64,000 bases of DNA from an uncultured Candidatus Rokubacteria bacterium. GTDB taxonomy: Bacteria; Methylomirabilota; Methylomirabilia; Rokubacteriales; CSP1-6. Position 1 is the first letter of the stretch; the number at the start of each line of letters is the position of its first letter. The stretch lies in contig CAVYTA010000004.1 in NCBI GenBank assembly GCA_963771355.1, positions 248,252 through 312,251 on the forward strand, read 5' to 3'. Shown in pieces: positions 1-16,801 of the stretch. A program made the translations under genes and the position numbers. The notes under the pieces are model-generated. The model was not told where the DNA came from. It saw only the letters and a program-made list of their open reading frames with translations, and searched no databases.

Positions 1-1
1 C

Positions 2-1117
2 ACTAGGCTACCTATCAGAGTCATTGCTGCTGCACTATCCCTCTCCACGGTCGCGTGCGCCGTGCCACCTAAGAGAGTGAACCCTGTTGGCCTTTCCTTT
101 GCTGCGTATGAAGACGCTGCGCGCCGCAGCTGGACCGGGCCTCAGGACCGCCCATTGGCCACGGCGATCTGGTATCCCGCAGCGCCGGGAAGTCGTGAAT
201 CTGAATGGCGAGTCGGCATCTTCAACGCCGGGTGGAACGCACAAAAGGCCCCGCTGTCCGCTGCCACCACCAAACGTCCGTTGGTCGTCCTATCGCACGG
301 AACCGGCGGTGGAGCGGCAGGAATGGCCTGGCTTGCCGAGACCCTCGCGTCGAATGGGTATATCGTTGCTGCTGTAAATCACCACGGCAACACGGCGGCC
401 GAACCTTCATACCAGCTTGAAGGGTTTATCCTGTGGTGGGAACGGGCGAGGGATATTTCGGTCCTCATCGACAAGGTGTCGGCCGACCCACAGTTTGGCG
501 CTCACATAGACCCATCTCGAATCGGAGTCGCAGGGTTCTCTCTAGGTGGGTATACCGCGTTGGCAACGGTTGGCGCCAGGCTCGCGTATCAGCAGTGGAA
601 GAGCTTTTGCGCCAGCCAGCCACTAGAGCCAAACTGCAACTTGCCCCCGGAAGCTTCCTTCTCTATGGCAAACGTCCAGCGACTTCTCGATCACGATGAT
701 CGTGTCAAGGAGGCGGTCAGCCACTCGCACGAGTCATTCCGTGATGCACGAGTCAGGGCAGCATTCGCCATTGCCCCGGTGCTCGGGCCGGCCATGACAA
801 GGGCCAGTCTGGCTGAGGTTAAGGCTCCGGTCCGCATCATCGTCGGCTCGAAGGATGACCAAGCGGCTCCAGACGTCAACGCGAGGCCGATAGCATCTGC
901 CATTCCGTACGCTGAACTCGAGATTATCCCCAACGTCATGCACTATACGTTCCTCGCCAGATGCAATTTCTTGGGTAAAGTCATGGCGCGCTCGCTCTGC
1001 ACTGACCCTGACGAGATCGACAGGGAGGAAGTGCACAGAAGGATCAGCGCCGACGCGCTCAGCTTCTTCAACCGCACACTACGAGGAGAACTAGACGGCA
1101 ATGAAGCACGCAAATAA
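2..1117 (+). CDS. Alpha/beta hydrolase (predicted dienelactone hydrolase/PAF-AH-like), probable lipoprotein, 5'-partial
   Basis: SHGTGG oxyanion motif and GFSLGG nucleophile elbow. The frame is open back to base 2 and reads IRVIAAALSLSTVAC (signal peptide/lipobox), so the start is probably upstream of the window. Confidence 0.8.
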   Translation, partial: TRLPIRVIAAALSLSTVACAVPPKRVNPVGLSFAAYEDAARRSWTGPQDRPLATAIWYPAAPGSRESEWRVGIFNAGWNAQKAPLSAATTKRPLVVLSHGTGGGAAGMAWLAETLASNGYIVAAVNHHGNTAAEPSYQLEGFILWWERARDISVLIDKVSADPQFGAHIDPSRIGVAGFSLGGYTALATVGARLAYQQWKSFCASQPLEPNCNLPPEASFSMANVQRLLDHDDRVKEAVSHSHESFRDARVRAAFAIAPVLGPAMTRASLAEVKAPVRIIVGSKDDQAAPDVNARPIASAIPYAELEIIPNVMHYTFLARCNFLGKVMARSLCTDPDEIDREEVHRRISADALSFFNRTLRGELDGNEARK

Positions 1118-1700
1118 GCTGGCAGCGGCTACTCTCGCCATCTTGTTGATGGTCGCGCCGGGGCTCGCCAGCGACGATTCCAGCGAAGCGTGGGCGGCGC
1201 TGGCCAAGGGCGGCCACGTGGCGTTGATTCGGCACGGTAACGCGCCGCCCGGCTATGGCGGCGACCCGCCCGGCTTCAGGTTCGACGACTGCAAGACGCA
1301 ACGGAACCTGGATGACGTGGGGCGCGAGCAAGCCAGGGCGCTTGGTGAGGCATTTCGGAAGCACGGCGTGCGCGTGGACCGGATCGTGTCTTCGCCCATC
1401 TGCCGCTGCGTGGAGACGGGGCAGTTGATGGCGGTCGGCTCGGTTGAGACTTCGGGGGGCCTCCTGCCTGATATCGGGTCGGGTAGAGCCCGGGTCCTGG
1501 AGCTGGAGGAGATGGTGTCTTCGTGGCGGGGACCGGGCACGCTGGTGCTGGTGACTCACGCGCTGACCGTCGGGCGCCTGACCGGATTCACCCTGGAACA
1601 GGCCGAAACGCTCGTGCTTCAACCGACCCCTGAGAAGCTGCCGGCCGGCCATCTTCCACGGGGGGGACGCTTGGCGGGCAGGATCCCGCCACCCCAATAG
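1101..1700 (+). CDS. Histidine phosphatase family protein, secreted
   Basis: LIRHG motif, SSPICRC, LVTH; N-terminal signal peptide. Confidence 0.85.
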   Translation: MKHANKLAAATLAILLMVAPGLASDDSSEAWAALAKGGHVALIRHGNAPPGYGGDPPGFRFDDCKTQRNLDDVGREQARALGEAFRKHGVRVDRIVSSPICRCVETGQLMAVGSVETSGGLLPDIGSGRARVLELEEMVSSWRGPGTLVLVTHALTVGRLTGFTLEQAETLVLQPTPEKLPAGHLPRGGRLAGRIPPPQ

Positions 1701-1707
1701 GGACGGA

Positions 1708-1765
1708 GACCCTCGCGCTCGAGCGGACGCGCTTCGCGCGCGACCGGGACATTAGAGGGAGCCGG
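1708..1765 (+). repeat. Degenerate attC-like site
   Basis: GAC-N10-GAGCGGACGCGCTTCGCGCG...GACCGGGACATTAGAGGG; shares 13/13 nt GAGCGGACGCGCT and its 3' end with 5186-5243. Confidence 0.6.
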
Positions 1766-2158
1766 ATGAAATACGGCATCGAGGTATTGGGTGAACAGCC
1801 GGGCGACGGACCGATCGTCGAACGCCGCGAGTCGTACCGCATCCGCGTGAAGATGTGGCTGAACCGAGGCGATCTGGTTCGATGGGAGCGTCCCTGGGAT
1901 TTTCTTACTCAGGCATACCTCGAGGACGATGGCGCCACACTCGTTACCGACGTGCGCATGGATCGAGCCTTCCTGATTCCTGGCCTCTTCTACGGGATGG
2001 AGGGGATGCGAATCGGGGGCACACGAAAGCTCCGCATTCCGCCCTCGTTCGCTTTCGGTGAGACCGGGATCCCCGATCGCATCCCGCCGAATGCCGTGAT
2101 CACAGCGGAGGTATCCGTGCTGGCGAAGGGGACCGCATCAGGCTGCACAATCACGTAA
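1766..2158 (+). CDS. FKBP-type peptidyl-prolyl isomerase-like protein
   Basis: IPGLFYGMEGMRIGGTRKLRIPPSFAFG...IPPNAVITAEV matches the FKBP C-terminal half. Confidence 0.8.
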   Translation: MKYGIEVLGEQPGDGPIVERRESYRIRVKMWLNRGDLVRWERPWDFLTQAYLEDDGATLVTDVRMDRAFLIPGLFYGMEGMRIGGTRKLRIPPSFAFGETGIPDRIPPNAVITAEVSVLAKGTASGCTIT

Positions 2159-2256
2159 GGCACGCTGGCGCCACCATGGGCATGGGCTCGAGCAGCGTAG
2201 GGTAAACTCAGAGCGATAGCCCATTAAGGGGCCCCTTCAGGAGGAGGACAAAGAGA

Positions 2257-2556
2257 ATGCTTCTGGACGTCAAGATTCCGCATGAGACCTTCAACGCTGC
2301 AGTCCGGGACGGGAGCGCCGGGGAGAAACTGAAGCGAATTCTGGAGGCTACGAAGCCGGAGGCAGTCTACTTCACGGAGCGCGACGGGCACCGTGGCGGG
2401 ATCCTGATCGTGAATCTGGACGACCCGTCGAAGATTCCGGCGTTGGTGGAGCCGTGGTTTCTCACCTTCAACGCAGATGTAGAGATCCGCGTGGCGATGA
2501 CACCGGAGGATCTGGCCCGTGCCGGCCTCGATGCGCTTGGGAAGAAGTGGGTATAG
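2257..2556 (+). CDS. Small conserved protein (GYD/DUF3303-like ferredoxin fold)
   Basis: KPEAVYFTE.DG.RG...EPWFLTFNADVE..AMTPEDL; strong GGAGGAGG RBS. Confidence 0.7.
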   Translation: MLLDVKIPHETFNAAVRDGSAGEKLKRILEATKPEAVYFTERDGHRGGILIVNLDDPSKIPALVEPWFLTFNADVEIRVAMTPEDLARAGLDALGKKWV

Positions 2557-2560
2557 GCCC

Positions 2561-2581
2561 CGATAACTTCGCAGTTCAGCG
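2561..2581 (+). repeat. attC-like left-arm remnant
   Basis: GATAACTTCGCAGTTCAGCG aligns with TCCAACCCCGCAGTCCAGCG at 4353; begins 5 nt after a stop codon. Confidence 0.5.
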
Positions 2582-3409
2582 ATGACGGGAAGCGTTCCTC
2601 CACGGATCTACTGCATTCCAGCGACGGTGGCGCCGATCGTGGCGGTGTTCCGGCGCGGGCCGACGAACTGGTCCCACGTGGGTCGCTGGGATCTCGGAGA
2701 GAGACGGTACGAGGCCGGCGCGTGGCTCGGTGGACGGATCTTTCCACGACGGTCCGATCTCTCCCCCGACGGTCGTTTCCTCTGCTACTTTGCGCATAAG
2801 CCCAGCGCCACCTGGGAACACGGGGAGGCGTACGTGGCCTTGTCGAAGGTCCCCTGGCTCACCGCGCTCCACGCCTTCCGTACCTGTGGCACGTGGACGC
2901 GTGGCTACTACTTCACCGAGGCTGACGATGACGAGAACCCAGCGGAGACGAACCTTCCGATCCCCTACGGGTTGCGCTCCATTCCGGTGATTCAATTTGC
3001 GAACGAACGACGTCGCGGCTGGGAGGAAGCGACGGACTCTCCCCCACGCGACCCCGGGGACGCATGGGATGAGCGCCGCAACGCCCGCATCCAGAAACGC
3101 CAGCCCGGCGGCGACCGGCTACTGTGTGTGGAAAGTCTCGGACGGGCGGGAGGCGAGTTCGGCGTCGATCAGGCGGTCGACGGCCTGCGTGTCAGCTACT
3201 GGCTGGAAGTAAGTGGAGAGATCCAACTCTTGAATCACCTCCAATGGGCGGACTGGGATCGAGAAGGACACCTGCTGGTCGCCACACGGAGCGGGCAGCT
3301 TCAGGTCTGGAAACTCGATGGCGATGGCTCCGAGGTACTGTTCGAAGAAGACCTGTCTGTCTCCGAGCCGAACCCGATTCCCGCGCCGGCATGGGCCACG
3401 CGATGGTAA
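2582..3409 (+). CDS. Hypothetical protein (Trp-rich, possible beta-propeller/TolB-like repeat)
   Basis: Long ORF in the co-oriented array; DLSPDGR and WADWDREGHLLVAT segments. Confidence 0.7.
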   Translation: MTGSVPPRIYCIPATVAPIVAVFRRGPTNWSHVGRWDLGERRYEAGAWLGGRIFPRRSDLSPDGRFLCYFAHKPSATWEHGEAYVALSKVPWLTALHAFRTCGTWTRGYYFTEADDDENPAETNLPIPYGLRSIPVIQFANERRRGWEEATDSPPRDPGDAWDERRNARIQKRQPGGDRLLCVESLGRAGGEFGVDQAVDGLRVSYWLEVSGEIQLLNHLQWADWDREGHLLVATRSGQLQVWKLDGDGSEVLFEEDLSVSEPNPIPAPAWATRW

Positions 3410-3420
3410 GGGGCTGGGAC

Positions 3421-3441
3421 GACGCCCCGTGTTCAGCGGAC
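3421..3441 (+). repeat. attC-like left-arm remnant
   Basis: GAC-N10-CAGCGGAC starting 12 nt after a stop; same spacing as the copy at 1708. Confidence 0.45.
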
Positions 3442-3455
3442 ACACGGCAATCGTC

Positions 3456-4118
3456 ATGACCGACCCGGACCGCCTGGCACACACGGCGCGCGTTCTGAGC
3501 GCACACGGCCTAACCTTGCCCGAGCATTACGTGATGTGCTCGGCGGGCTATCGCGTGACGCTGCCTTCCGAGGCGTTCGTCTCGCACGCGTTCGCAGTCA
3601 CGGAAGGCGACCCTCGTGGCCACCCGGCGCGTCCAGAGCTGGCGGCGGCCCTCCGGCGGCTTCAGACACGTGGGCTGATGTCATGCCTGACCGCAGCGGC
3701 CCTTCGCGCGGACGCCCGACGGAGGGCCGCCTCCAGGGTTCCGGAGGTAATCACCGAATACCGAGTCGGTCACGTCGATTTCACTCCCAAAGGATACGGG
3801 GTCCATCGGGAGGTGATTCGAGCCATCCACGGCGACGACTTTCTCGCACGGAGCGACGCGGGCTTCAATCTCGATCTGGACGCGGGCCGCTTCGACGTGT
3901 ATGCCGTGAGCGTGGACGAGTGTCGCCGGCTGATGGACGAGATCCAAGCCGGGGGCGACGATTACACGGGTGCAGAGTGCACCCGGTTCGTTGGTCGGGA
4001 CGGGCCGGCCGCGATCGCGGCATGGCGGCCCAATCGCTTCTTTGTGCGCGAGGCCGGGTATCATGGCGCTCTGCGCTTTATCAGCGATGCCGCCGAGCTG
4101 GCCGTTCGGCATAGCTGA
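3456..4118 (+). CDS. Hypothetical protein
   Basis: ORF filling the gap between neighbours; ATG at 3456 chosen to avoid overlap. Confidence 0.6.
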   Translation: MTDPDRLAHTARVLSAHGLTLPEHYVMCSAGYRVTLPSEAFVSHAFAVTEGDPRGHPARPELAAALRRLQTRGLMSCLTAAALRADARRRAASRVPEVITEYRVGHVDFTPKGYGVHREVIRAIHGDDFLARSDAGFNLDLDAGRFDVYAVSVDECRRLMDEIQAGGDDYTGAECTRFVGRDGPAAIAAWRPNRFFVREAGYHGALRFISDAAELAVRHS

Positions 4119-4179
4119 GCGGAAACGCGGTGGTCGTGGCCCCCGATACGGAGCGTCCGATATCAGAGAGGAGGCCCTG

Positions 4180-4329
4180 GTGACACCAGAAAATCACAAG
4201 GCGATCGCTCGGCGGTTCTTCGAGGACGTCTGGAACAAGCAAGCGTTAGAGGCGATCGACGACATCTTCGCTGCGTCTGTGGCGGATGAGCTCAGCATCC
4301 TACAGCAGCTCGGCCAGTTGAGCGCATGA
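4180..4329 (+). pseudogene. Internally deleted SnoaL-like ester cyclase
   Basis: N-terminus ENHKAIARRFFEDVWN joined directly to the C-terminal DELSILQQLG; only 49 aa; RBS GAGGAGG retained. Confidence 0.7.
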
Positions 4330-4351
4330 CCCCCACGCCGAACCGGCGGAT

Positions 4352-4421: not shown

Positions 4422-5177
4422 ATGCCGTTCTACGAACGAGGCCCCGTCCGCATCCACTACCAGGAGGCAGGTTCCGGCTTCCCCCTGCTGCTCATTCCCG
4501 GCGGCGGGCTCAATTCAGCCCTATCATCCTGGCAGACCGCCTCGCCCTTCAACCCGATGGAACGGTACAAGGGCGACTTCCGCTGTATCTGCGCCGACCT
4601 GCGCAATGCCAATCCCGGCCAGTCCAGCGGCCCGCTGGAGATCGACCGTCCCTGGGACGCCTATGCCGACGACCAGCTTGGCCTGATGGACCACCTCGGC
4701 ATCCGGGAGTTCCTGGTCATGGGCTTCTGCATCGGCGGACCGATGATCCATAACCTGATCAAGCGGGCGCCGGAGCGCGTCGTCGCGGCCGCGATGATGC
4801 AACCCAGCGGGTCCAGGCCTGAGCTCCCGGACCTGTTCTACCAGAACAACATCAAGGGCTGGGGACCCGCGCTGTGCGAGAAGCGCCCCGACGTCACGAT
4901 GGCCATGGTCCATGACTTCCTCACCAGCATGTACACCAACCGCGCCGACTTCGTTTTCACCGTGTCGCGCGATTTCGTGCGCTCGATCCAGACGCCGCTG
5001 CTGATCGCGCCGGACGACGTGCCCGCGCACCCGTACAAGGTCGCGATGGAGGTGGCTAGCCTCGCCCGGAACGCCGAGGTGACCATCTATCCCTGGAAGG
5101 ATTCGCAGGAGCACATCGACGAGGTCGTGGAGCACGCGCGGCGCTTCCTCAAGGCGCACGAGCCCGTCAGAGCCTAG
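4422..5177 (+). CDS. Alpha/beta hydrolase (Cys at the nucleophile position)
   Basis: LLLIPGGG, ADLRNA, MGFCIGG elbow; RBS GAGGAG. Confidence 0.85.
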   Translation: MPFYERGPVRIHYQEAGSGFPLLLIPGGGLNSALSSWQTASPFNPMERYKGDFRCICADLRNANPGQSSGPLEIDRPWDAYADDQLGLMDHLGIREFLVMGFCIGGPMIHNLIKRAPERVVAAAMMQPSGSRPELPDLFYQNNIKGWGPALCEKRPDVTMAMVHDFLTSMYTNRADFVFTVSRDFVRSIQTPLLIAPDDVPAHPYKVAMEVASLARNAEVTIYPWKDSQEHIDEVVEHARRFLKAHEPVRA

Positions 5178-5185
5178 GATTTCTC

Positions 5186-5243
5186 CATCAACGTGGGAGC
5201 GGACGCGCTCGGTGCACCGCTGACCGTGGACGTTAAAGGGCCG
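5186..5243 (+). repeat. Degenerate attC-like site (most complete copy)
   Basis: [46 protein letters not shown]-box-like inverted pair AGCGG/CCGCT plus a GTT core. Confidence 0.65.
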
Positions 5244-5245
5244 GT

Positions 5246-5725
5246 GTGATGGGCATTCTGGACTTCCTAAAGCGGCCCGCGTTCAGAGATCCGGTGGTGG
5301 GCAATCTTCTCCGCCAAGGGCGCTACTGGCGAGGCCAGATCAGCCTCGGATCGGAGCGTGACGTGCCGATGCTTCTCGCCGGATCTCGGGCCGCTCCGGA
5401 CGAAGCAGGCCTCGGACTCGCTCGCGAGCTCGGTCCTCGGTACGCGACGCTTCTACCGGCCATCGAGCGGGCGCTGTTCGAGCACCAAGAGCCGTATGCC
5501 GAGGCGGTGGCATCAGGCGAGGCCGGGCATCTGGTGGAAGTCCCGCGCCTTGCGAGTCCGGAGCAAGTGTGGGGGCATATCTCGGTCGTGCGCGTGCTGA
5601 TCGAACCATTGGACGGGGTCGATACGGTGGAGATTGCCTATCGGACGGACTGGGACACGGAACACACGCTGGGTGCTCGGTTTCAGGGCTGGGCATTGAT
5701 CGAACTCAATGGCAGTGTCATCTGA
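5246..5725 (+). CDS. Hypothetical protein
   Basis: ORF ending WDTEHTLGARF...ELNGSV; starts just after the GTT core. Confidence 0.7.
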   Translation: MMGILDFLKRPAFRDPVVGNLLRQGRYWRGQISLGSERDVPMLLAGSRAAPDEAGLGLARELGPRYATLLPAIERALFEHQEPYAEAVASGEAGHLVEVPRLASPEQVWGHISVVRVLIEPLDGVDTVEIAYRTDWDTEHTLGARFQGWALIELNGSVI

Positions 5726-5816
5726 GGGGACGGGACCGGGTGAGAGAGGAGCCATCAAAGTAAGCTATGGCCATGTGGGTGGGACATACACGACCAGCTA
5801 ACCTCGGAGGGCCTCC

Positions 5817-6620
5817 ATGATCATTGGCCTGGCGTCGCCTGGTATCGCCTCAACCCTTGATGAGGGCTTGGACCGGATCCAGCGGCTCCTGTCCGAAGCG
5901 TCGACCCAGGGCGCGGAGATCGTGTGTTTCCCGGAAGCCTATCTCCCGGGACTGCGGGGACAGGATTTTGAAGTAATGCCCTTTGATCTGGCGCTCCAGG
6001 AGCGGGCACTCGGGGCCGTGGCTCAGTGGGCGCGAACCTATGGGGTGGCCACTATCCTCGGGATGGAAAGGATCACGGGGGCGGGTCGGCAGATTGTCGC
6101 GTTCGTCATCGACGCCCGGGGCCAGATTCAGGGATACCAAACCAAGAACCAACTAGACCCGACCGAGGATCAGTTCTACGTGCCTGGCGATACCCGGCGA
6201 CTCTTCGAGATCAACGGGACGAAGTTTGGAGTGGCGATCTGCCATGAGGGCTGGCGCTATCCGGAGACGGTGCGGTGGGCGGCGGTGCGGGGCGCCAAGA
6301 TCGTCTTCCACCCCCATCACACGGGGAGTGATCGAGAAGGTGTCCGACTGTCGGAATGGGGCGCGGCCAGCAGCCCGTACTACGAGAAGGCGATGGCCAT
6401 GCGCAGCCGGGAGAACACGATCTACTTTGCCAGCGTCAACTACGCGTTGCGCTTCCAGGAATCGGCGACAAGTCTGATCACCCCGTCCGGCGAGTGCCAG
6501 GCGTACCTCCCTTATGGGCAGGAAGGCGTACTGGTGCAGGCCATCAAGGTCGAGGAAGCAACCGGATTGCTCGCGAGTCGATACGCACCCCAGCGCTATC
6601 CAGAATTCCCGCGGGAGTGA
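5817..6620 (+). CDS. Carbon-nitrogen hydrolase (nitrilase superfamily)
   Basis: Catalytic E-K-C: FPEA, QTKNQL, AICHEG. Confidence 0.9.
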   Translation: MIIGLASPGIASTLDEGLDRIQRLLSEASTQGAEIVCFPEAYLPGLRGQDFEVMPFDLALQERALGAVAQWARTYGVATILGMERITGAGRQIVAFVIDARGQIQGYQTKNQLDPTEDQFYVPGDTRRLFEINGTKFGVAICHEGWRYPETVRWAAVRGAKIVFHPHHTGSDREGVRLSEWGAASSPYYEKAMAMRSRENTIYFASVNYALRFQESATSLITPSGECQAYLPYGQEGVLVQAIKVEEATGLLASRYAPQRYPEFPRE

Positions 6621-6622
6621 CC

Positions 6623-6666
6623 GCTCAACCCCGCATGCCGTCGACGCCGTTCCGCCGGCGTTAGGG
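6623..6666 (+). repeat. Shortened attC-like site
   Basis: GCTCAAC (RYYYAAC) 2 nt after a stop and GTTAGGG 8 nt before the next start; only 44 bp. Confidence 0.55.
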
Positions 6667-6674: not shown

Positions 6675-7493
6675 GTGCTGGCCACCCTCAGACAGGCTCG
6701 CCGCGCGGACATTCCGGCGATGCATCGTGTTCGGCTCGCCGTGCGTGAGAACCGGCTCACCTCGAGGATCACCGAAGAGGACTATATTCCGGCGATCGAG
6801 GAAACCGGTCGTGGGTGGGTCGTCGAAGTCGACGGTGGGGTGGTAGGCTTTGCGGTCGGAAACGCGGCGACCGGGAACATCTGGGCATTGTTCGTGGATC
6901 CCGCGCATGAAGGTCAGGGCCATGGCCGCCGCTTGCACGATGCCATGGTCGAGTGGCTGTTCTCTCGCGGTCTCGAGCGGCTATGGCTCAGTACCGATCC
7001 CAACACACGTGCCCACCGGTTCTACGAGTCGGCGGGATGGCGGCATACGGGTATGCTCGCCAACGGCGAAGCAACCTTTGAGCGCCATGCTCCAATCGGC
7101 CCGCACCCTATGCCGGGGAGGTCAGGAGGCATGATCAAGTTCGATCATCTCAGGATCCCGGTCACTGATCTGGCGCGCTCGCGCGACTGGTACATTCGCA
7201 CGCTGGGCCTGAAGGTCGAGTTCGAGGTTCCGGACCGGCAGACGGTCGCGCTCCAGGACAGCGACGGCTTTACGATCTTTCTTCAGGAGGTACCCCCTCC
7301 CGTCGTGCCAAACCAGTGCGCTCTGTGGTTTCAGGTCACCGATGTCGACACCATGTTCACGGACTGGTCCGCACGAGGAGTCGAGTTCGCCCATAGCCCG
7401 CGCAAGTCCTACTGGGGCTACGGGGCCGAGCTCGTCGATCCCGACGGGTACTTGATTCGGCTCTGGGACGAGCATTCGATGAAGGCAAAGTGA
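6675..7493 (+). CDS. GNAT acetyltransferase fused in frame to a VOC/glyoxalase domain (internal start at 7131)
   Basis: LFVDPAHEGQGHG and A.RFY..GW, then CAGGAGGC-ATG 7131 MIKFDHLRIPVTDL...DPDGY. Confidence 0.8.
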   Translation: MLATLRQARRADIPAMHRVRLAVRENRLTSRITEEDYIPAIEETGRGWVVEVDGGVVGFAVGNAATGNIWALFVDPAHEGQGHGRRLHDAMVEWLFSRGLERLWLSTDPNTRAHRFYESAGWRHTGMLANGEATFERHAPIGPHPMPGRSGGMIKFDHLRIPVTDLARSRDWYIRTLGLKVEFEVPDRQTVALQDSDGFTIFLQEVPPPVVPNQCALWFQVTDVDTMFTDWSARGVEFAHSPRKSYWGYGAELVDPDGYLIRLWDEHSMKAK

Positions 7494-7518: not shown

Positions 7519-8070
7519 ATGGCTACTCTCGAAGAGTACAGCGGGCTCCCGATAGAGGCTCGTCTCCGACGTCTGGAGCAGACGCCGGGCGAGCTGGAGC
7601 GCGACCTGTCTGGAAAGACGGACGCCGAGCTTTCCCGGCGCCCCGACGCCCACAATTGGGCCGTCAAGGAAATCGTCTGTCACCTGCGTGATGTCGAGGA
7701 GCTCTTCCAGATCCGGTTCCACACCGTGGTGGCCCTCGACGAGCCTCGCATCCTCGTGCTGGGGGCGCGCGCGAACGACCTGGCGGCCTGGCGGATCGGA
7801 GGCGCGATTGGCCACCCGCTCGATCCGGGGCGGTGGGCCGAGGAGCGCCAGTATCTCCGCAACGACACCGGTGAGGCGCTGGCCGCATTTCAGCGGCGCC
7901 GGACCGAGGTCTTGGTGCTCCTGCGTTCCCTCTCGCCGGCGGAATGGCAGCGCGGAGGTATTCATCTCAGCCAGGGTCGCCTCACTCTGGCGGACTGGGT
8001 GGCCAGGCTCGCCGCGCACGATGACAACCACGTCACCCAGCTCCGCCGCGCACTCGAAGGTCGGGCATGA
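7519..8070 (+). CDS. DinB family protein
   Basis: WAVKEIVCHL ... AAHDDNH His triad. Confidence 0.85.
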   Translation: MATLEEYSGLPIEARLRRLEQTPGELERDLSGKTDAELSRRPDAHNWAVKEIVCHLRDVEELFQIRFHTVVALDEPRILVLGARANDLAAWRIGGAIGHPLDPGRWAEERQYLRNDTGEALAAFQRRRTEVLVLLRSLSPAEWQRGGIHLSQGRLTLADWVARLAAHDDNHVTQLRRALEGRA

Positions 8071-8109
8071 AGTCGGAGCGGTGGTAGGATCGCCCGAAGG
8101 GGATCTCAC

Positions 8110-8517: not shown

Positions 8518-8576
8518 ACGCAAACGGTGGGCTTCGGGGCTCCCACCCGCGGCCGTCTAGCTCGGGCGCCGGAGTG

Positions 8577-8903: not shown

Positions 8904-8994
8904 ACGGCCGCCCCGCCGAGGCGAAGGTGAGTGACGGTGCACCATCGACTCGAAGCAGCGCGGCGCGGTTCCCGCGCGGGCGTCTCCGGCTTAG

Positions 8995-9381
8995 ATGCTG
9001 ATCCTGGTGGTCGGCCTGCTGGTTCCGGTAGCGATGGTGGCACTGTACCGGTACTTCGTGAGGAAGCGGGATGGGCGGGCTCGGTGGCGCTCGGCCGCCA
9101 CGATCGGCGCATCGGTTGGCATCACGCGCGCGGTGTTGGCCTGTACGGGGTGGTACGTAGTCGAGCACACGGGCGGACCACTTCAGATCCCGGCTTTCGC
9201 GCTGGCGATGTTGGCATGGCCCGAAGCGATTGTGTTCGGCCGGCATCGAGGCCCTGTTCCGCTGAGTTTCTATCCCGTGCTTGCACTTCTGCTCATCGTG
9301 ACATCTATGTCGCTGGTGACCAGTGTGGCTCTCGCGGCACACGCCAGCCACGGGCAGCGCGCCGCCCGGAGCGGATCATGA
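8995..9381 (+). CDS. Hypothetical membrane protein
   Basis: 3-4 hydrophobic segments; start lies within CTTAGATG. Confidence 0.6.
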   Translation: MLILVVGLLVPVAMVALYRYFVRKRDGRARWRSAATIGASVGITRAVLACTGWYVVEHTGGPLQIPAFALAMLAWPEAIVFGRHRGPVPLSFYPVLALLLIVTSMSLVTSVALAAHASHGQRAARSGS

Positions 9382-10040
9382 GCGATGACGAGGTTGACCA
9401 GACATGGGTCTCGCGCGAGGCCGCCGTGTGTAGTTCGAGGGCGCGGAAGGCTTTGGTCGCGGCTTTTGTCGCTCTGCTCATAGCGAGCCTGGCGGCGGCT
9501 GGCGTCGCCGACGCGGCCGCCGGACCGGGGCGCCCCAGTCTTCCCCAAGTTCCCTATGAGGACCACGGTGCGTGTCCCTTCGAGTGCTGCACCTATCGGA
9601 CGTGGACGGTCAAAGCCGATACACCGGTCCGCACGGATCGCCGGGACACCGCCCCGGTGGCCTTTCGTGTCCGTCCGGGCGAGCAGGTAAATGGTCTCAC
9701 GGGCGTCGTGGTCACGAGGAAGCTGGGTAGGGCCACGATCCGGGAGCCGATAGTCGTCGAGACGGACAAGCTCGCGCTTGAACCCGGTGAAGCAGTGTCC
9801 GTCGTCAACTACATCGGCGAGGGAGTGTGGAAGATCTGGGCGCGGGGACGACTTTACCACCTTGAGATCGCGAGCAAGGAGCACACCTGCGCTGGGCACG
9901 CCCGAACACCCGGTCCATGTGCCGCCCAGATCGTCGAGGAACCGGAGACCGTGTGGTGGGCGAAGGTACGCAACCGCGGTGGGCAGGAAGGTTGGACGCG
10001 ACAGCTGGATCACTTCGGTCAGATCGACGCTTGCGGCTAG
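9378..10040 (+). CDS. Hypothetical secreted Cys-containing protein (SH3-like)
   Basis: ACPFECCTY motif, WWAKVRN..GQEGWT, C-terminal DACG. Confidence 0.7.
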   Translation: MSDDEVDQTWVSREAAVCSSRARKALVAAFVALLIASLAAAGVADAAAGPGRPSLPQVPYEDHGACPFECCTYRTWTVKADTPVRTDRRDTAPVAFRVRPGEQVNGLTGVVVTRKLGRATIREPIVVETDKLALEPGEAVSVVNYIGEGVWKIWARGRLYHLEIASKEHTCAGHARTPGPCAAQIVEEPETVWWAKVRNRGGQEGWTRQLDHFGQIDACG

Positions 10041-10107
10041 ATCCCGTGCTCGCAAGGGCTGAACCACGGTGGGACAGAGGACTTCGAGAGGGCATGGGCG
10101 GTCGTCG

Positions 10108-10545
10108 ATGCTGAACCTGTTCGGCTTCCTGGCGGTGGGGTGCTGCGGCTTGTTCGCCGGCGCCGCGCTCTACGTCAACCTGGTCGAGCATCCGGCTCGA
10201 ATGAGCTGCGGCGTGGACCTTGCGCTCCGTGAGTGGGCGCCCAGCTACAAGCGTGCCTCGGTCATGCAGGCGTCCCTTGCCGTGATCGGCGGCGTGGCCG
10301 GCGTGTTGGCGTGGGCGCTCCTGGGCGGTCTCGGCTACCTCGTCGGGGCTCTCCTCCTGCTGGCGGTGGTGCCGTTCACACTTCTCGTCGTCTTCCCGAC
10401 AAACAAGCGCCTCCTGGAGCTCCATGCCGAAGGTCAGATTGGTAACGCGCGCGAGCTGCTCAAGCGGTGGAACGCGCTTCACGCGGTACGGACCGCATTG
10501 AGCGTGGTGGCATTCGTCTTGATGCTGCGTGCGCTCAGGGGGTAG
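10108..10545 (+). CDS. DUF1772/anthrone oxygenase-like membrane protein
   Basis: GLFAGAALYVNLVEHPAR, PFT....PTN..L, W..LHAVRT. Confidence 0.85.
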   Translation: MLNLFGFLAVGCCGLFAGAALYVNLVEHPARMSCGVDLALREWAPSYKRASVMQASLAVIGGVAGVLAWALLGGLGYLVGALLLLAVVPFTLLVVFPTNKRLLELHAEGQIGNARELLKRWNALHAVRTALSVVAFVLMLRALRG

Positions 10546-10722
10546 ATGCCAAGTCGGCACCGCCCCCGTCCCCGGCGCGCGATGGTCGCTGGTGTTATGG
10601 TTTGTGATGATGATTGCCCGCTGACGCGACTCTTGTGACGATGCGGGGCTCGTCAACCTGCAAACCTCTTCACGCCTGGTGGCCGAGCTTCGCGGTTGGC
10701 GCGACGGATAGAGGAGAAACAC

Positions 10723-11256
10723 ATGGCCGAGCCCCTGAAGGCACTGAACCTGAAACGCTGGATCGACGAACACCGTCACCTGTTGAAGCCTCCGGTAGGG
10801 GCTGAGGTGATCTGGAAGGACTCCCAGTTCATGGTCATGCTCATCGGGGGCCCGAACGCGCGCCGAGACTTCCACATCGACCCGCGCGATGAGTTCTTTT
10901 ACCAGCTTGAAGGCGACATGATCCTGGAGCTCATCGACGAAAGAGGCAAGAGACAGCGGGAGAAGATCCGGGAGGGAGACGTACTTCTGTTACCGGCCAA
11001 TACTCCTCATTCTCCACAGCGGCCGGCGAACACGGTGGGCTTGGTGGTGGAGCCCGTCCGAGGCCCGCATGAACCTGAAAGCTACGCCTGGTACTGTGAG
11101 CAGTGCGACGCCAAGCTGTACGACATGTCCAGGGGGGAGGGCGACCTCCTGCTGGACCTGCGAAGGGTGTCGGAGAAGTTCAATGCGAGTGAAGCGCTTC
11201 GAACATGCAGGCCCTGCGGTTACGTGCAGCCGGTGGCGACGGGCCCCCGCTTGTAG
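10723..11256 (+). CDS. nbaC: 3-hydroxyanthranilate 3,4-dioxygenase
   Basis: LKPPVG, GGPNARRDFH, EFFYQ, PHSPQR and two CxxC motifs of the rubredoxin-like site. Confidence 0.9.
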   Translation: MAEPLKALNLKRWIDEHRHLLKPPVGAEVIWKDSQFMVMLIGGPNARRDFHIDPRDEFFYQLEGDMILELIDERGKRQREKIREGDVLLLPANTPHSPQRPANTVGLVVEPVRGPHEPESYAWYCEQCDAKLYDMSRGEGDLLLDLRRVSEKFNASEALRTCRPCGYVQPVATGPRL

Positions 11257-11329
11257 TTCGAATGGTCCCGTCGCCCTTGTCGCGAACTCTCGCGGCGGTT
11301 CGACAACATCATTCTGGGGAGGAACAGCC

Positions 11330-11629
11330 ATGATCATGCGGATCACGTGGGGCAAGCTCCGGCCCGGCTCATGGAACGAGTTCGAGAGGACGTACAAGGC
11401 GACGGTGGCCGCCAAGGGGGGCACCAGCAAAGGCCTGCGTGGACGGTGGCTCATGCAGGACACGGCCGATGCGGATACGGGGTTCGCGGTCAGCCTGTGG
11501 GAAAACGCGGCGGAGATGCAGGCCTACGAGAAGAGCGATCTCTACCAGAAGGAGTTCGCGCCCGCCCTCCAGCCGTTCTTCGTCGGGGAGTACAAGACCT
11601 ATCGCTGTGAGGTCAAGTACATGCAATAG
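11330..11629 (+). CDS. Antibiotic biosynthesis monooxygenase (ABM) fold protein
   Basis: 99 aa; AVSLWE...M.AY pattern; RBS GGAGG. Confidence 0.75.
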   Translation: MIMRITWGKLRPGSWNEFERTYKATVAAKGGTSKGLRGRWLMQDTADADTGFAVSLWENAAEMQAYEKSDLYQKEFAPALQPFFVGEYKTYRCEVKYMQ

Positions 11630-11639
11630 CCCGCGCATG

Positions 11640-11771
11640 GCGGCGCGGTCGCACACGCCCAGGGCCCGGGGGGTCCTCGATACCGATCTGACCGGGAAGA
11701 ACGCGAGCTTCTCGAATGCGACGATCTTCGTCGGTCTCGTGGAGTGGGCCGACAAAGTCCTCACGGAATAG
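11640..11771 (+). pseudogene. C-terminal remnant of a DsrE-family protein
   Basis: ARGVLDTDLTGKNASF...FVGLVEWADKVLTE* resembles DsrE C-termini; N-terminus missing. Confidence 0.5.
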
Positions 11772-11833
11772 TAGCGCGGTCAACCGGACCTACCGGCGAG
11801 CCACCGGCAACACCTCGAAAGGAGCACGGGCCG

Positions 11834-12247
11834 ATGCCGCTGCAGGACATGTACCCCGTCATCGTCACGCCCCAGCACAAGGAGTGCCGGGACTTCTATG
11901 CGCGCTGGTTCGAAGCCGCCGTCGTGTTCGAGGCGTCGTGGTTTGTCCTTCTGGCATTGCCCGGCGATCCGCCGCGGACGGTGGCCTTCATGGCCCCCGA
12001 CCATCCCTCCTCGCCTCCAGGCCCCGAAACCTTCAACGGCACGGGTCTCTTCCTCACGTTCCAGGTCTCGGATGCGGCCGCGGAGTACGCGCGGCTCGAG
12101 CAGGGGGGCGCGACGTTTGTCTACGCGTTGCGAGACGAACCGTGGGGCCAGCGTCGCTTCGCACTGCGGGATCCGTCGGGTTGCTGGGTTGATGTGGTGG
12201 AGCAAACGGAGCCGGCGCCGGGCTTCTGGGATCCCTATGTCTCGTAG
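11834..12247 (+). CDS. VOC/glyoxalase family protein
   Basis: RDFY..WF, DEPWGQRRF..RDPSG. Confidence 0.9.
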   Translation: MPLQDMYPVIVTPQHKECRDFYARWFEAAVVFEASWFVLLALPGDPPRTVAFMAPDHPSSPPGPETFNGTGLFLTFQVSDAAAEYARLEQGGATFVYALRDEPWGQRRFALRDPSGCWVDVVEQTEPAPGFWDPYVS

Positions 12248-12263
12248 CGCCGCGCCCTGAGCG

Positions 12264-12743
12264 GTGAACCCCTCGGCTCCCGACCACCCCGCGAACACCG
12301 GCCTGCGTCGCCACTGCCAGGCGCAGGCTCAGCGATCGGGCATGCCGCCGCTCGCCTCTCCCGATGAGGTCGTGCGACCGTACGAGACGCTGGGCACGCA
12401 TCCTGATCTGGTCGCCCGACTCTGGGACGAGCTCCCGGCCGAGCTGCCCGTGGATTGTCGAGTGGTCTTCTACGGCATGCCCGTCTTGATGCACCCCACG
12501 ACGGGCATCGTGTTCGGCTTCGCGGGCGGCACCCACACCTACGCGCTCCGACTTCCCGAGCGGGAACGGGCGGAAGCGCTCCAAGCCGGCGCCACCCGGA
12601 TCAAGCACTACCGTTCGGTCCAGATCAGCTTCGATCTCGACGACATCGGGCCAGAGTGGGTATTTTGCGGGTGGTTCAAGGGCGAGGAAGCGTGGTGTCG
12701 TTCGGCGTTCGAGAGCGCGGGTTCTCAAGGGAGCAGAGTATGA
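12264..12743 (+). CDS. Hypothetical protein
   Basis: LGTHPDLVARLW...YG.PVL.HP..G.VFGFAGGT..YALRLP. Confidence 0.7.
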   Translation: MNPSAPDHPANTGLRRHCQAQAQRSGMPPLASPDEVVRPYETLGTHPDLVARLWDELPAELPVDCRVVFYGMPVLMHPTTGIVFGFAGGTHTYALRLPERERAEALQAGATRIKHYRSVQISFDLDDIGPEWVFCGWFKGEEAWCRSAFESAGSQGSRV

Positions 12744-12803
12744 AGACCACCTCGAGCCCTGGCGGCTGAAGCGGGACGGGTGCGGTCGAGAGGCCGTCGC
12801 GCC

Positions 12804-13361
12804 ATGGAGCTGGTCTGGCCTTCCCCGCAGCACCTCGAAAGCTATGTCGCCGCCCTCGAGCGCGGCTGGTCGCCCGACAACGTTCGCGGTGAGACGGCCG
12901 CGCGCGAGGAGCTGAGGTCGATCGCCACCGACCCCGCCGCATTCCTCGCCGGTCTGGTGGACCGTGAGGCAAAGGGCTCGCCCATCACCCTTCCCGACGG
13001 CTCGAGGGTCCCACGCCTTCCCGGGTATCGTCGTTGGATGTGGGATGGTGAGTTCTGCGGGAGCATCGGCTTTCGCTGGCAGCCCGGGACCCCGGCGCTC
13101 CCGCCACATTGCCTGGGGCACGTAGGATACGCGGTCGTTCCTTGGAAGCAGGGAAGAGGGTATGCAACACTCGCGCTCAGGCTATTGCTGCCAGAGGCCC
13201 GCGCGGAGGGGTTGCCGTTCATCGAGCTCACCACCGACCCGACGAACATGGCCTCTCAGCGAGTCATCCGGGCCAATGGTGGTGTTCTGGTCGAACGCTT
13301 CACAACGCCCGCCCAGCTCGGGGCGACTGAGACCCTCCGGTTCAGAATCACGCTGTCATGA
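12804..13361 (+). CDS. GNAT acetyltransferase (RimJ/L-like)
   Basis: GHVGYAVVPWKQGRGYAT, N.ASQRVI..NGG. Confidence 0.9.
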   Translation: MELVWPSPQHLESYVAALERGWSPDNVRGETAAREELRSIATDPAAFLAGLVDREAKGSPITLPDGSRVPRLPGYRRWMWDGEFCGSIGFRWQPGTPALPPHCLGHVGYAVVPWKQGRGYATLALRLLLPEARAEGLPFIELTTDPTNMASQRVIRANGGVLVERFTTPAQLGATETLRFRITLS

Positions 13362-13371
13362 AAGGGGGGAC

Positions 13372-14370
13372 ATGACAAGAAGGTTGCCGGTCATGCGGAG
13401 GCTCCGGGTATTCGTGGCCATCGTGCTCGGCCTCCTCTGCGTGCCCTCTCCGTCCGAGGCTCAGCGGTCCGCCGGGATCGCCCGGATCGGCTACCTCACC
13501 CCCACCTCGCAGCCGGCGCGTGAGGAAGTGTTCCGCCAGGAGCTGCGCCGGCTCGGCTACGCCGAGGGCCAGAATTTTGTCCTGGAGTACCGGTCGGCAA
13601 ATGGGGACTTCGACCGGCTGCCGGACCTCGCGGCGGAGCTGATCGCGCTCAACGTGGACGTCCTGGTCACGGTGGTGACTCAGGCCGCTCTGGCGGCAAA
13701 GAAGGCGACGGCCACGATCCCCATCGTCATGGTGGGCGTGTCCGACCCCGTCGGGGTCGGGCTGGTCGCGAGCCTCGCGCGACCGGGCGGCAATGTCACG
13801 GGAACGTCGTCCCTGGCGGCCAATGTGGTGGGAAAGCAGCTCGAGTCATTGCGAGAGATGCTGCCCAAGGTCTCCCGGGTGGCCACCCTCTGGAACCCGG
13901 CGAATCCTGTGTTCCAGAAGCTCCAGCTGGGAGAGGTCAAGGCGGCCGCCGCGAAGCTGCGGCTGCAGATCCAGCTCTTCGAGGCCCGGACCCCCGACCG
14001 GCTGGATCACGCCTTCACGTCGATGGCGAGGCAACGCCCGGAGGCGCTCCTTGTCCTGGGGGATCCGATGTTCGGCGCGCACTGGGCGCGGATTGCCGAG
14101 CTGGCCGCCCGGCACCGCATGCCGACGGTGAGCGGGACGCGAGAGTTCGCGGACGCCGGTGGCCTCATGACCTATGGACCGGACTACTTCGAGGCGTACC
14201 AGCGGGCCGGCCGGTACGTGGACCAGATCCTGAGGGGCGGCCGGCCGGCCGACCTTCCCGTCGAACAGTCCACCAAGTTCGAGCTGGTCATCAATGCCCG
14301 GACGGCGGCGACGCTCGGGATCACCATCCCACGGTCGCTGGTCGGGCGCGCCGACCGGGTGGTGGAGTGA
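13372..14370 (+). CDS. ABC transporter substrate-binding protein (ABC_sub_bind type)
   Basis: TIPIVM..DPVG.GLVASLARPGGNVTG; PADLPVEQ.TKFELVIN. Confidence 0.9.
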   Translation: MTRRLPVMRRLRVFVAIVLGLLCVPSPSEAQRSAGIARIGYLTPTSQPAREEVFRQELRRLGYAEGQNFVLEYRSANGDFDRLPDLAAELIALNVDVLVTVVTQAALAAKKATATIPIVMVGVSDPVGVGLVASLARPGGNVTGTSSLAANVVGKQLESLREMLPKVSRVATLWNPANPVFQKLQLGEVKAAAAKLRLQIQLFEARTPDRLDHAFTSMARQRPEALLVLGDPMFGAHWARIAELAARHRMPTVSGTREFADAGGLMTYGPDYFEAYQRAGRYVDQILRGGRPADLPVEQSTKFELVINARTAATLGITIPRSLVGRADRVVE

Positions 14371-15308
14371 CGGCGCTGAGGCCGTTTCGCTTCGGCGTGA
14401 ACGTGTGGGGCGCTGGATCCCGGGGCGAGTGGATCGACAAGGCCCGGAAGATCGAGGCGCTGGGCTACTCCATCCTGACGGTGCCGGATCACCTGGGGGA
14501 GTTCTTCGCGCCCATGCCGGCGCTGGTGAGCGCGGCGCAGGCAACAACGCATCTTCGCGTGGGCACGAACGTGCTCAACAACGATTTCCGGCATCCCGTG
14601 GTCGTGGCGCGCGAGGCGGCCACCGCCGACGTCTTGACCGATGGCCGGCTGCAGCTCGGCCTGGGCGCCGGCCACATGAGGTCGGAATACGACGAGGCCG
14701 GACTGCGCTTCGAGGCCGGGGCCACCAGGGTCGAGCGGCTGGCGGAGGCGGTCGCCATCGTCAAGGGCCTGCTCGGGGGTGAGGCGGTCACCTCCACCGG
14801 GCGGCACTACCGAGTGACCGGGCACACGGTCTACCCGCTTCCCGTCCAGCGCCCCCGCCCTCCCATCCTCATCGGCGGCAATGGCCGGCGCCTCCTCACC
14901 CTCGCGGCGAAGGAAGCCGACATCGTCGGGCTGTCGGGGATCACGTTCCGGAGCGGTGGGGTCGAGCGGGACCTGTCCGGCTGGCGCACCGTGGGCGTCG
15001 ACGAGCGGATCCAGCTCATCCGGGAGGCGGCCGGCGACCGCTACGCGCAGCTCGAGCTGAACGCGCTGGTCCAGCGCGTCGTGGTGACCGACGATCGCCG
15101 CCGGGCTGCCGAGGAGCTCGCGCGGCGCTGGACGCCGCTGAGCCCGGCCGAGATCCTGTCGAGCCCGTACGTCCTGGTGGGAACGATCGACGAGCAGGTC
15201 GAGGATCTTCAAGCGCGCAGGGCACGGTGGGGTCTCTCCTACTACGTCATCTTCGAGCCGTACGTGGACGCTTTCGCTCCCGTCGTCGCCCGGCTCGCGG
15301 GGAGATAG
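14367..15308 (+). CDS. LLM-class (putatively F420-dependent) oxidoreductase
   Basis: VPDHL, RHPVVVARE, GRLQLGLGAG, PPILIGG. Confidence 0.9.
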   Translation: MTALRPFRFGVNVWGAGSRGEWIDKARKIEALGYSILTVPDHLGEFFAPMPALVSAAQATTHLRVGTNVLNNDFRHPVVVAREAATADVLTDGRLQLGLGAGHMRSEYDEAGLRFEAGATRVERLAEAVAIVKGLLGGEAVTSTGRHYRVTGHTVYPLPVQRPRPPILIGGNGRRLLTLAAKEADIVGLSGITFRSGGVERDLSGWRTVGVDERIQLIREAAGDRYAQLELNALVQRVVVTDDRRRAAEELARRWTPLSPAEILSSPYVLVGTIDEQVEDLQARRARWGLSYYVIFEPYVDAFAPVVARLAGR

Positions 15309-15749
15309 ATGAAAATCGCGATTGGCTCCGATCACGCCGGATTCCGCTACAAGGAGATTCTCAAGTCCGCCCTCGCCGCGCGCGGGCACGAGGTGCGCGA
15401 CTTCGGTACCAGCTCGTCGATGCCCGTCGACTATCCCCTGTTCATCCGGCCGGTGGCCTTGGGAGTCGCGCGGGGTGAGTTCGAACGGGGGCTCGTGCTG
15501 GGGGGGTCGGGCAATGGGGAGGCGATCGTCGCCAACCGGGTCCGCGGCATCCGGTGCACGATCGGGTGGAACGTCGAGTCCGTGCGCCTCGGGCGCGCGC
15601 ACAACGACTCGAACGTCTTGTCGCTGGGGGAGCGGTTCGTCGCGGAGGGGGACCTCCTGGCCATGCTGGACATGTGGCTGACCACGCCCTTCGAAGGCGG
15701 GCGTCACCAGAGACGAATCGAGCTCATCGACGCGGGGGATGGCGCCTAG
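15309..15749 (+). CDS. rpiB: Ribose-5-phosphate isomerase B
   Basis: IAIGSDHAG, DYP, GGSGNG, HNDSNVL, FEGGRH..R. Confidence 0.95.
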   Translation: MKIAIGSDHAGFRYKEILKSALAARGHEVRDFGTSSSMPVDYPLFIRPVALGVARGEFERGLVLGGSGNGEAIVANRVRGIRCTIGWNVESVRLGRAHNDSNVLSLGERFVAEGDLLAMLDMWLTTPFEGGRHQRRIELIDAGDGA

Positions 15750-15756
15750 CCTGCCG

Positions 15757-15906
15757 GTGGCCGCCGTGATCACCGCGGCCCGCGGCACGTTTGACACGCT
15801 CCGGCTGCGGACGGAGAATCCGACCGCGGCGCGCCTCTACGAGCGGATGGGGTTTCGCCGCTGCGTCGAGGCCGACGACAGCACGCATGTCATGGAGCTA
15901 GCGTGA
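15757..15906 (+). pseudogene. C-terminal remnant of a GNAT acetyltransferase
   Basis: Translates VAAVITAARGTFDTLRLRTENPTAARLYERMGFRR...; N-terminal part absent. Confidence 0.65.
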
Positions 15907-15922
15907 GTTGCCTGGAGGGCAG

Positions 15923-16291
15923 ATGCAGATCACGGGCGTCATTCCCCAGCTACGGACGACCGATCTGGCGGCCTCGATCCGGTTCTACACCACCAAGCTC
16001 GGCTTGACGCTCGAATTCCAGTACGAGGACTTCTACGCCGGCATCCGAGCGGGGAACCAGGTCTTCCACCTCAAGCTCTCGGACGAGAAGGACCCGTCGA
16101 TCGCGTTCGTGGACCAGGAGGAGCACTTTCACCTCTACTTCGAGACCGACGATGCCGCCGCGGTGGTGGCCGGATTGAAGAAGAACGGAGTGCCGCTGGT
16201 GAAGGAGCTGCACGAGACGCCCTGGGAGACGCGGGAGTTCGCGGTCAAGGACGATCAGGGGCACACGCTCTACTTCGGGGAGCGGCGCTAG
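15923..16291 (+). CDS. VOC/bleomycin-resistance family protein
   Basis: SIRFY..KLG, TPWETREF..KDDQGH.LYFG. Confidence 0.9.
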   Translation: MQITGVIPQLRTTDLAASIRFYTTKLGLTLEFQYEDFYAGIRAGNQVFHLKLSDEKDPSIAFVDQEEHFHLYFETDDAAAVVAGLKKNGVPLVKELHETPWETREFAVKDDQGHTLYFGERR

Positions 16292-16324
16292 ATTCCCACC
16301 GGCGGCGTCGCGGAGCCGACGGCG

Positions 16325-16801
16325 ATGACGGGACGGCGGCTATCGTCGTCGCTGACCTTTTTCTGGAAGGTTGTCCTCCCGGCGGCCTGGATCGCCGGCT
16401 TCGTGGTCTGCGCGGAGTCCGTGTTCTTCGTCTCCCGCGGGAAGGCTCCCGATCCCGGGCTCCAGTCGCTGAAATGGGCCTTCCTGCTCGTGTCCCTCGT
16501 GGGGGCGCCGGCGCTACTCTGGTTCGCCACCGGGCTCAAGCGGGTGACGCGAGATGGGCCCGATCTGCTCGTCTCGAACTACCGGCGGGAGCTGCGGATC
16601 CCGGTGGGGGAGATCCGGCATGTCTACCAGAGCTGGGCGGTGAGCCCCTGGCGCGTGGTGATCGACATGCGCGCCCCGACCGAGCTCGGCTCGACCTTCG
16701 TCTTCATCCCCCGATTCCGTGACGGGCTCACGCATCGGGCGCTCGGCGGCCAGCATCCCGTGGTCGAGGAGATCCGGGCGATGTGCGATGCGGCGCGCTA
16801 G
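16325..16801 (+). CDS. Hypothetical membrane protein
   Basis: Two TM segments plus a soluble domain; stop overlaps the convergent ggt stop. Confidence 0.7.
   Translation: MTGRRLSSSLTFFWKVVLPAAWIAGFVVCAESVFFVSRGKAPDPGLQSLKWAFLLVSLVGAPALLWFATGLKRVTRDGPDLLVSNYRRELRIPVGEIRHVYQSWAVSPWRVVIDMRAPTELGSTFVFIPRFRDGLTHRALGGQHPVVEEIRAMCDAAR

Follow-up and report, generated by a model that had tools for sequence, protein, structure and literature searches.

How did a run of short, unrelated genes, all read in one direction, come to fill 16.8 kb of the chromosome of an uncultured Candidatus Rokubacteria bacterium, and can those genes still move? The run lies at positions 1-16801 of a window of 64,000 nt (G000:C4:248252-312251, G000 being the source genome, 5.5 Mb in 8 contigs and 99.77% complete); window coordinates equal the coordinate on contig C4 minus 248251, and negative ones lie upstream. 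An initial annotation of the window had proposed a decayed cassette array, locked in and pruned, and this idea is supported by what we found: an integrase gene stub, congeners in which this locus is in different states, and genes whose attC site is broken here and intact behind a homologue. The 16.8 kb are very probably the distal two-thirds, with eroded attC, of a chromosomal integron array of 24 kb in which intI has been deleted to an 18-codon stub, and the genes are likely former cassettes that could presumably no longer be excised and are kept by selection while their spacers are trimmed. Support for such a fossil tail is high for positions 1-6.7 kb and moderate for 11.8-16.8 kb.

The answer starts outside the window. 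The array begins 7.4 kb upstream, where low GC and co-oriented short genes set in from about -7400, and the following features lie in this part:

-7670 to -7617 (C4:240581-240634), + strand: intI 3′ stub, found by tblastn as the last 18 IntI residues, 17/18 identical to the IntI of the congener G002
R box at -7427, + strand: leader of ~190 nt and attI
near -78, + strand: degenerate site

Between attI and this degenerate site, ten attC extend from -6353 to -576, eight strong (30-61 bits) and two weak. The whole element measures 24.2 kb, of which the window holds 16.8 kb and the intact part makes up 30%. The statement that no site is still canonical is thus true inside the window and false for the element as a whole. 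Likewise, a genome-wide search found no IntI over the TIGR02249 family cut-off in this nearly complete genome, in agreement with the description of an array without an integrase, except that the stub of one remains before attI, after a DUF2277-like gene and at the place orthologous to the intI of G002. In integron recombination the cassette that follows contributes the R′ box behind G|TT, and in consequence each R″ should match the R′ upstream. Indeed, five of the ten R″ boxes match the upstream R′ perfectly and one of the ten matches its own R′; the series starts at the R box of the putative attI, which is perfectly complementary to the first R″. The leader is 70-88% alike in three other arrays of the same genome and in G002 and G003, and it contains no sigma-70 consensus match that could mark a cassette promoter. 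As to classification, the element lacks the intact adjoining intI of a complete integron, having the 18-codon stub alone, and it shows at least two clustered attC (the eight strong ones) with no integron integrase nearby; the stub and the G002 intI lie on the + strand with attI at the 3′ end of intI, which is the co-oriented ("inverted integrase") arrangement. The whole element is a group of clustered attC sites without integron integrases (CALIN) derived from a co-oriented chromosomal integron, and the window holds its fossil tail. Because canonical attC lie just upstream of the window, standard attC models would likely find the element, contrary to the expectation that they would miss it, and would likely cut the array short.

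Inside the window the sites have to be sought as remnants. A covariance model trained on 25 attC sites adjoining IntI in relatives, none from G000, passed no window site (best match 5183-5238, 14.5 bits, E=0.43), and an Rfam scan of window positions 1-20000 returned three chance matches (E 2-3.7). We scored the fixed 70-nt stretch after each stop codon, at 28 window junctions, against 60 attC of relatives. Four junctions were significant (1700, 2556, 4329 and 5177), with a backbone rate of 4.3%; the junction at 6620 was borderline (p about 0.03), and that at 3421, between genes w05 and w06, was not significant (p=0.07). With 4/28 junctions significant and none past 6.7 kb, remnants do exist, though in the first 6.7 kb only. 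The 22 called spacers were enriched as a set with a left-arm matrix (Mann-Whitney p=0.012) and less so by local alignment (p=0.08); six of the 28 junctions were left out of this second test (spacer <10 nt or filters) and are included in the 70-nt test. The motif first noted behind stop codons, (A/G)AC-N9/10-(C/G)AGCG, is present at 1708, 2565, 3421 and 4356 as named. It falls within 40 nt of the stop in 3/28 window genes vs 69/5113 backbone genes (p=0.007) and in 3/22 window vs 77/2114 backbone spacers (p=0.047). Enrichment of the short motif after stops is thus borne out, and that of attC over the whole set is modest, with 3421 falling short. Two weak left-arm matches in called spacers (10545, 11771) gained no support from the alignment score. 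The sites retained, all on the + strand, are as follows:

1704..1757: attC remnant, AAC changed to GAC, GTT to ATT, L′ arm partly deleted (p=0.001)
2561..2584: attC remnant, left arm alone, ended by the next start codon
4352..4400: attC remnant, R″ and L″ canonical, right half deleted (p=0.001)
5183..5238: degenerate full-length attC, the best window match of the covariance model
6622..6666: attC remnant, missing the L′ arm that the intact site behind w10 homologues has, borderline alone

In all, five to six spacers are attC that were deleted or mutated, every one of them within 6.7 kb. Their predicted bottom-strand folds are weak (-3 to -16 vs -24 kcal/mol) or altered, and the window genes lack the combination of R″/R′ triads, paired L boxes and bottom-strand hairpin that characterises a functional gene cassette.

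What kind of genes are these? A simple home-made caller, with which some starts are uncertain, gave 29 genes in 1-16801, all on the + strand: 26 whole ones, one being an in-frame GNAT-VOC fusion, and three fragments (4180-4329, about 11660-11773 and 15766-15906), close to the 25 or so genes and three fragments counted at first. Their median protein length is 159 aa vs 298 aa genome-wide, and their more A/T-rich codon usage, initially judged by eye, is confirmed by a median third-position GC content (GC3) of 0.79 (n=29) vs 0.92 in the genome (n=4525; Mann-Whitney p=1e-14). With w01-w28 as gene labels coined in this analysis, the content is:

2..1117, + strand: w01, alpha/beta hydrolase, overlapping w02 by 17 nt, with no attC left at its 3′ side
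1101..1700, + strand: w02, histidine phosphatase-family gene
1766..2158, + strand: w03, FKBP-type domain gene
2257..2556, + strand: w04, DUF3303-like gene
2582..4329, + strand: w05 and w06 (no Pfam match) and the SnoaL fragment w07
4422..5177, + strand: w08, alpha/beta hydrolase, which G002 and G006 also carry at this locus
5249..6620, + strand: w09, DUF6985, and w10, carbon-nitrogen hydrolase
6675..7493, + strand: GNAT-VOC in-frame fusion; an ATG of the VOC part's own lies at 7131, and in G003 the VOC gene stands alone
7519..11773, + strand: middle zone w12-w19b (DinB, SRPBCC, three unknowns, DUF1772, 3-HAO, ABM and a fragment), no significant remnant
11834..16801, + strand: distal block w20-w28 (VOC, unknown, GNAT, orphan ABC substrate-binding protein, LLM, RpiB, GNAT fragment, VOC, unknown), GC3 0.89, median spacer 16 nt
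16798..19206, - strand: gamma-glutamyltransferase frame, backbone, array boundary in G001, G003, G004 and G006

Were these genes once cassettes? For six of them (w02, w04, w10, w12, w21 and w22) a homologue is directly followed by an intact attC. An intact site follows the stop in 2 of the 7 homologue loci listed for w02 (G146, G165), and aligned to these two sites the w02 spacer has GAC for AAC and ATT for GTT and misses part of L′. The w04 spacer corresponds to the left arm of the 37.8-bit attC that follows an 88% identical homologue in G023. Two of the four full-length homologue loci of w10 carry attC (52.6 and 24.2 bits), and the w10 spacer equals the 52.6-bit site, that of G063, minus L′. 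For w12 an intact site follows the homologue at 1/5 loci, and for w21 at 1/7 loci, on a Gemmatimonadaceae contig with 8 sites. For w22, 16 of the best 80 of 510 metagenome relatives, and none of the 15 closest loci, have an attC (E<0.05) no more than 60 nt from where the match ends. In addition, two 91% identical homologues of w01 have an attC just upstream, and 13/26 homologues of w08 have an R′-like box just upstream of the start, a count made without background control. Many homologues in relatives have a partial attC or none, which indicates that erosion is common in the clade. The expectation that homologues would adjoin intact attC thus holds for these six genes.

The seven other genomes of the genus (congeners G001-G007), all searched at this locus, add a time dimension. 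In G002, downstream of a presumably ketopantoate reductase-like backbone gene, the DUF2277-like gene is followed by a full-length + strand intI, the leader and 26 attC (one weak) up to C14:327257; over these 26 sites the mean mismatch of R″ is 0.5 to the upstream R′ vs 1.46 to the own R′. In the 27 kb past that point, which end in w20-w25, w27 and w28 in the same order, there is no model match, and the boundary gamma-glutamyltransferase gene is missing (locus L069, near 12720, that is G002:C14:354721). G003 has four ordered intI scraps and six model matches, with the same distal block on another contig. G001, G004, G006 and G007 carry small co-oriented genes here, several of the loci being split over contigs, and G005 has w18, w19, w15, w12 and w26 in another order on a contig of unplaced position. 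Across the congeners the locus thus runs from intI present through shattered intI and a stub to no trace. Conserved gene order had been named as an outcome that would speak against a cassette array, and it was seen in part: the order of 11834-16801 is kept in two of the seven congeners (G002 and G003), whereas the middle zone differs, reading w19b, w17, w11b, w20 in G003 and w11b, w17, w19b, w20 in G000.

Position along the array also correlates with composition. GC3 rises with position (rho=0.63, p=3e-5, n=38 genes; zone medians 0.75, 0.75, 0.79 and 0.89), and spacer medians by zone are 126, 61, 62 and 16 nt. Pruning is visible in the GNAT gene w26, whole in G003 (147 aa), a 46-codon fragment in G000 and absent in G002. 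The dN/dS ratios (nonsynonymous to synonymous divergence) of all tested shared gene pairs are 0.08-0.54, similar to the 0.10-0.30 of backbone genes. Contigs from one DNA run, possibly not independent of the source sample, cover all 30 bins of 1-19500 evenly and bridge 6936-9495, 12031-13793 and 13764-16891; they differ from the window by spacer indels (2249, 10636) and by 76 letters replacing 18 at 11642-11661, the latter also in a second run. Contigs from three RNA runs cover the window thinly and patchily and may be DNA.

A model of the potential course of events can be drawn from these data. The platform consisted of intI, the leader of ~190 nt, attI and the cassettes, all on one strand, and the proximal cassettes were inserted through IntI-type recombination at G|TT, as R-box inheritance shows. 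New cassettes would enter at attI and push the older ones outward, so that distance from attI would reflect age. Older attC lost their arms through short deletions and suffered point changes in AAC and GTT, as seen in the alignments to the intact sites of homologues. Cassette excision requires a working site on both sides; since two functional sites are needed, all genes past the last intact attC (about -1340) would be locked in, even with intI present as in G002. Erosion probably started ahead of intI loss, because G002 has an equally bare tail behind its intI. Later pruning produced the fragments, overlaps and fusion, with the shared genes under purifying selection to judge by their dN/dS, and intI was lost separately, by one deletion of ~1 kb in G000 and by several deletions in G003.

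Several observations weigh against this account. Individually significant junctions are few (4/28), and none was found by the 70-nt test beyond 6.7 kb; the in-window score does not change significantly with position (rho about -0.27, p about 0.2); and the remnant rate in the congener tails is about background (2/32 in G002, 1/31 in G003, 0/16 in G006). Those tails also contain large genes unlike cassettes, such as ABC transporters and one for a 1287-aa protein. At 20 loci that hold homologues of w27 or w28 no attC reached significance (best E=0.058), and w08 homologues have an attC within 1.5 kb at 1/27 loci. The synonymous divergence (dS) of w20-w24, 0.41-0.72, exceeds that of the flanking backbone in the same genome pairs, 0.16-0.35, which may reflect weaker codon bias or separate acquisition. 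At this locus G001, G004, G006 and G007 have no trace of intI or leader and no attC match. Finally, three frameshifts break the intI of G002 into four pieces, which makes an active integrase there uncertain; as other G002 genes are split too, the frameshifts may stem from faulty assembly.

Could the region instead consist of two layers, decayed cassettes in the first 6.7 kb and, at about 11.8-16.8 kb, an older variable region filled in some other way, in front of which an intI-attI platform was later inserted? Such a history would account for the lack of remnants past 6.7 kb and of attC near w27 and w28 homologues, for the distal order kept in G002 and G003, and for the four congeners with small co-oriented genes and no intI or leader trace, and intI adjoins many unrelated genes across the order. 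It is nevertheless unlikely, given that homologues of w21 and w22 sit in intact arrays, that G002 retains an attC right-arm-like stretch after w20, that orphan substrate-binding genes like w23 are cassettes upstream, and that w08, with a degenerate full-length attC at its 3′ side, is already at this locus in G006.

Far less credible is a still-active, divergent cassette system with relaxed sites, raised as an alternative in the initial annotation and perhaps served by some tyrosine recombinase other than IntI, encoded elsewhere in the genome. In its favour, the short left-arm motif shows enrichment, and the genome has three frames for tyrosine recombinases, which score weakly against TIGR02249 (82 bits or less). 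However, the remnants share no new consensus; each arose by its own deletion or point mutation from an ordinary attC, still intact in homologues, and for this reason such a system is not supported. Moreover, the bottom-strand folds are predicted to be weak, the array is headed by an ordinary intI stub and attI, and one DNA run covers the stretch evenly, with contigs bridging many junctions. We attach a comparably slight chance to the possibility that the CALIN was built at a secondary site by an integrase from elsewhere and was never a complete integron here. The genome does hold at least five attC clusters and no IntI, and parts of a published account (10.1101/2022.09.11.507474) describe this route, but the stub at this very locus contradicts it: the stub and attI are in place, a full-length intI occupies the orthologous position in G002, and three other clusters also begin with the same leader. 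The eroded tail of a once complete integron is the reading that we retain.

A few further features of the region deserve mention. RpiB (in the distal block) was considered as an essential gene trapped in the array and ruled out, as two other RpiB paralogues exist in the genome (with no RpiA). A TTGACA-17-GAGAAT sequence lies at 15791-15819, within the GNAT fragment w26 and about 100 nt before w27; this promoter-like element could explain retention of the fragment, with the number of such matches at chance level. Scans of the window for promoters and for terminators gave counts at the level of chance (1 vs 1.6 expected and 8 vs 7.4). Beyond the array, at 20255-21534 on the - strand, lies what is presumably a TRAP transporter large-subunit-like gene, seemingly split over two frames (20476-21534 and 20255-21082).

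Is this locus a single case? At least five attC clusters are found in G000, four starting with the same leader and none with intI. The further clusters, three of them with the same leader and attI, are:

C8:125227, - strand
C6:1214152, + strand, with a shattered intI stub near C6:1214000
C6:2498626, - strand
C5:~1000227

In the order Rokubacteriales, IntI over the cut-off occurs in 48/124 genomes at least 85% complete, a count in which kin are not independent. The attC arrays of relatives sit 3′ of intI, with few sites on the 5′ side: 18 of 25 further intI loci have an attC match within 1.5 kb, all 18 downstream and on the intI strand. The genes upstream of intI are mostly unrelated between loci (L008-L027, L269-L293), and sometimes a genome has several intI. 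This co-oriented placement beside many unrelated genes suggests that the intI-attI platform itself moves, and no clear element end was apparent, as no 9-mer is common to more than 6 of 42 regions upstream of intI. A GTATC or GATAC 50-230 nt upstream of the conserved intI start was observed at 30/42 loci vs 675/4628 backbone upstream regions, often as a spaced palindrome, and the intI deletion of G000 begins within it; it is a possible operator or boundary. G000 also has 42 orphan ABC substrate-binding paralogues (PF04392-like), including that at window 13372-14370, most of which have a GC3 below that of the genome; 5/42 have a strong attC left arm directly behind them. Separately, four other runs of 10-16 small, co-oriented, low-GC3 genes occur in G000 (C4:13546-26484, C1:121875-134130, C6:59403-67626 and C5:877760-889320); their 66 kb contain one weak attC model match (E=0.034), and they are candidates for fully eroded arrays. 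As a tentative proposal, which we consider possible but doubtful, co-oriented intI-attI platforms in Rokubacteriales might settle at many sites, build an array and be deleted, while attC loss ratchets in from the far end, with a permanent operon-like tail left behind by every cycle. Fossil integron unseen by attC models would then make up much of the accessory genome, some of the 40-odd orphan substrate-binding paralogues and the other low-GC3 runs included.

Why does this matter? Integrons appear common in Rokubacteriales, an abundant soil order, and the locus implies that attC-based surveys undercount integron-derived DNA, by 16.8 of 24.2 kb here and 27 of about 49 kb in G002. Domestication of cassettes through attC loss was proposed in 2016, in the parts of PMC4889954 consulted, but the models by which arrays are defined do not see eroded sites. 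With a series of states at one locus, and with attC that can be compared in intact and broken form behind one gene, both the lesions and the order in which things happened become testable. Our literature searches, to which most subscription journals were closed, listed no paper on topic for integrons in Rokubacteria or Methylomirabilota and, for attC loss, none on these integrons.

Comparison with known systems places the element among CALINs, of which those with very degenerate attC were suggested to be perhaps an intermediate step to definitive gene stabilisation (Cury et al. 2016, PMC4889954, in the sections compared); routes to CALINs are treated in passages of PMC8618304 and 10.1101/2022.09.11.507474. 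Like the CALINs of those sections, ours is an attC cluster with no intact intI nearby; unlike them, the lost intI is traced here by a stub too short for a family search, no more than 30% of the array is intact, and stages before and after the present one can be seen at this locus in congeners. In Treponema chromosomal integrons, as far as the compared text of PMC3607928 goes, intI is likewise transcribed toward attI and in the cassette direction, and in the T. phagedenis remnant intI loss left a static array at the syntenic place. The differences are that our case belongs to another phylum, that the platform here has many unrelated genes as neighbours and occurs more than once in a genome, and that a long attC-free tail exists behind a still-present intI (G002). 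An attI downstream of intI is also described for Archaea in the portion of 10.1101/2022.02.06.479319 seen. Repeated, lineage-specific inactivation of intI followed by fixation of the arrays is shared with Xanthomonas integrons (10.1101/2025.06.18.660453); there, unlike here, intI has a single location (ilvD) and detectable attC define the arrays, and erosion of attC along the array is not described in the passages compared. Partial or whole loss of attC, read-through fusion and a truncated site that is no substrate are known from fused class 1 cassettes such as blaGES-1/aacA4, which PMC4670013 calls rare and still mobile as a unit, whereas here more than 25 consecutive genes are without a working site. 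Every ingredient is already known; what is new is how far the bare tail extends, that it exists behind an intI still in place, and the congener series, and these 16.8 kb likely show the stepwise conversion of captured genes into permanent parts of the chromosome.

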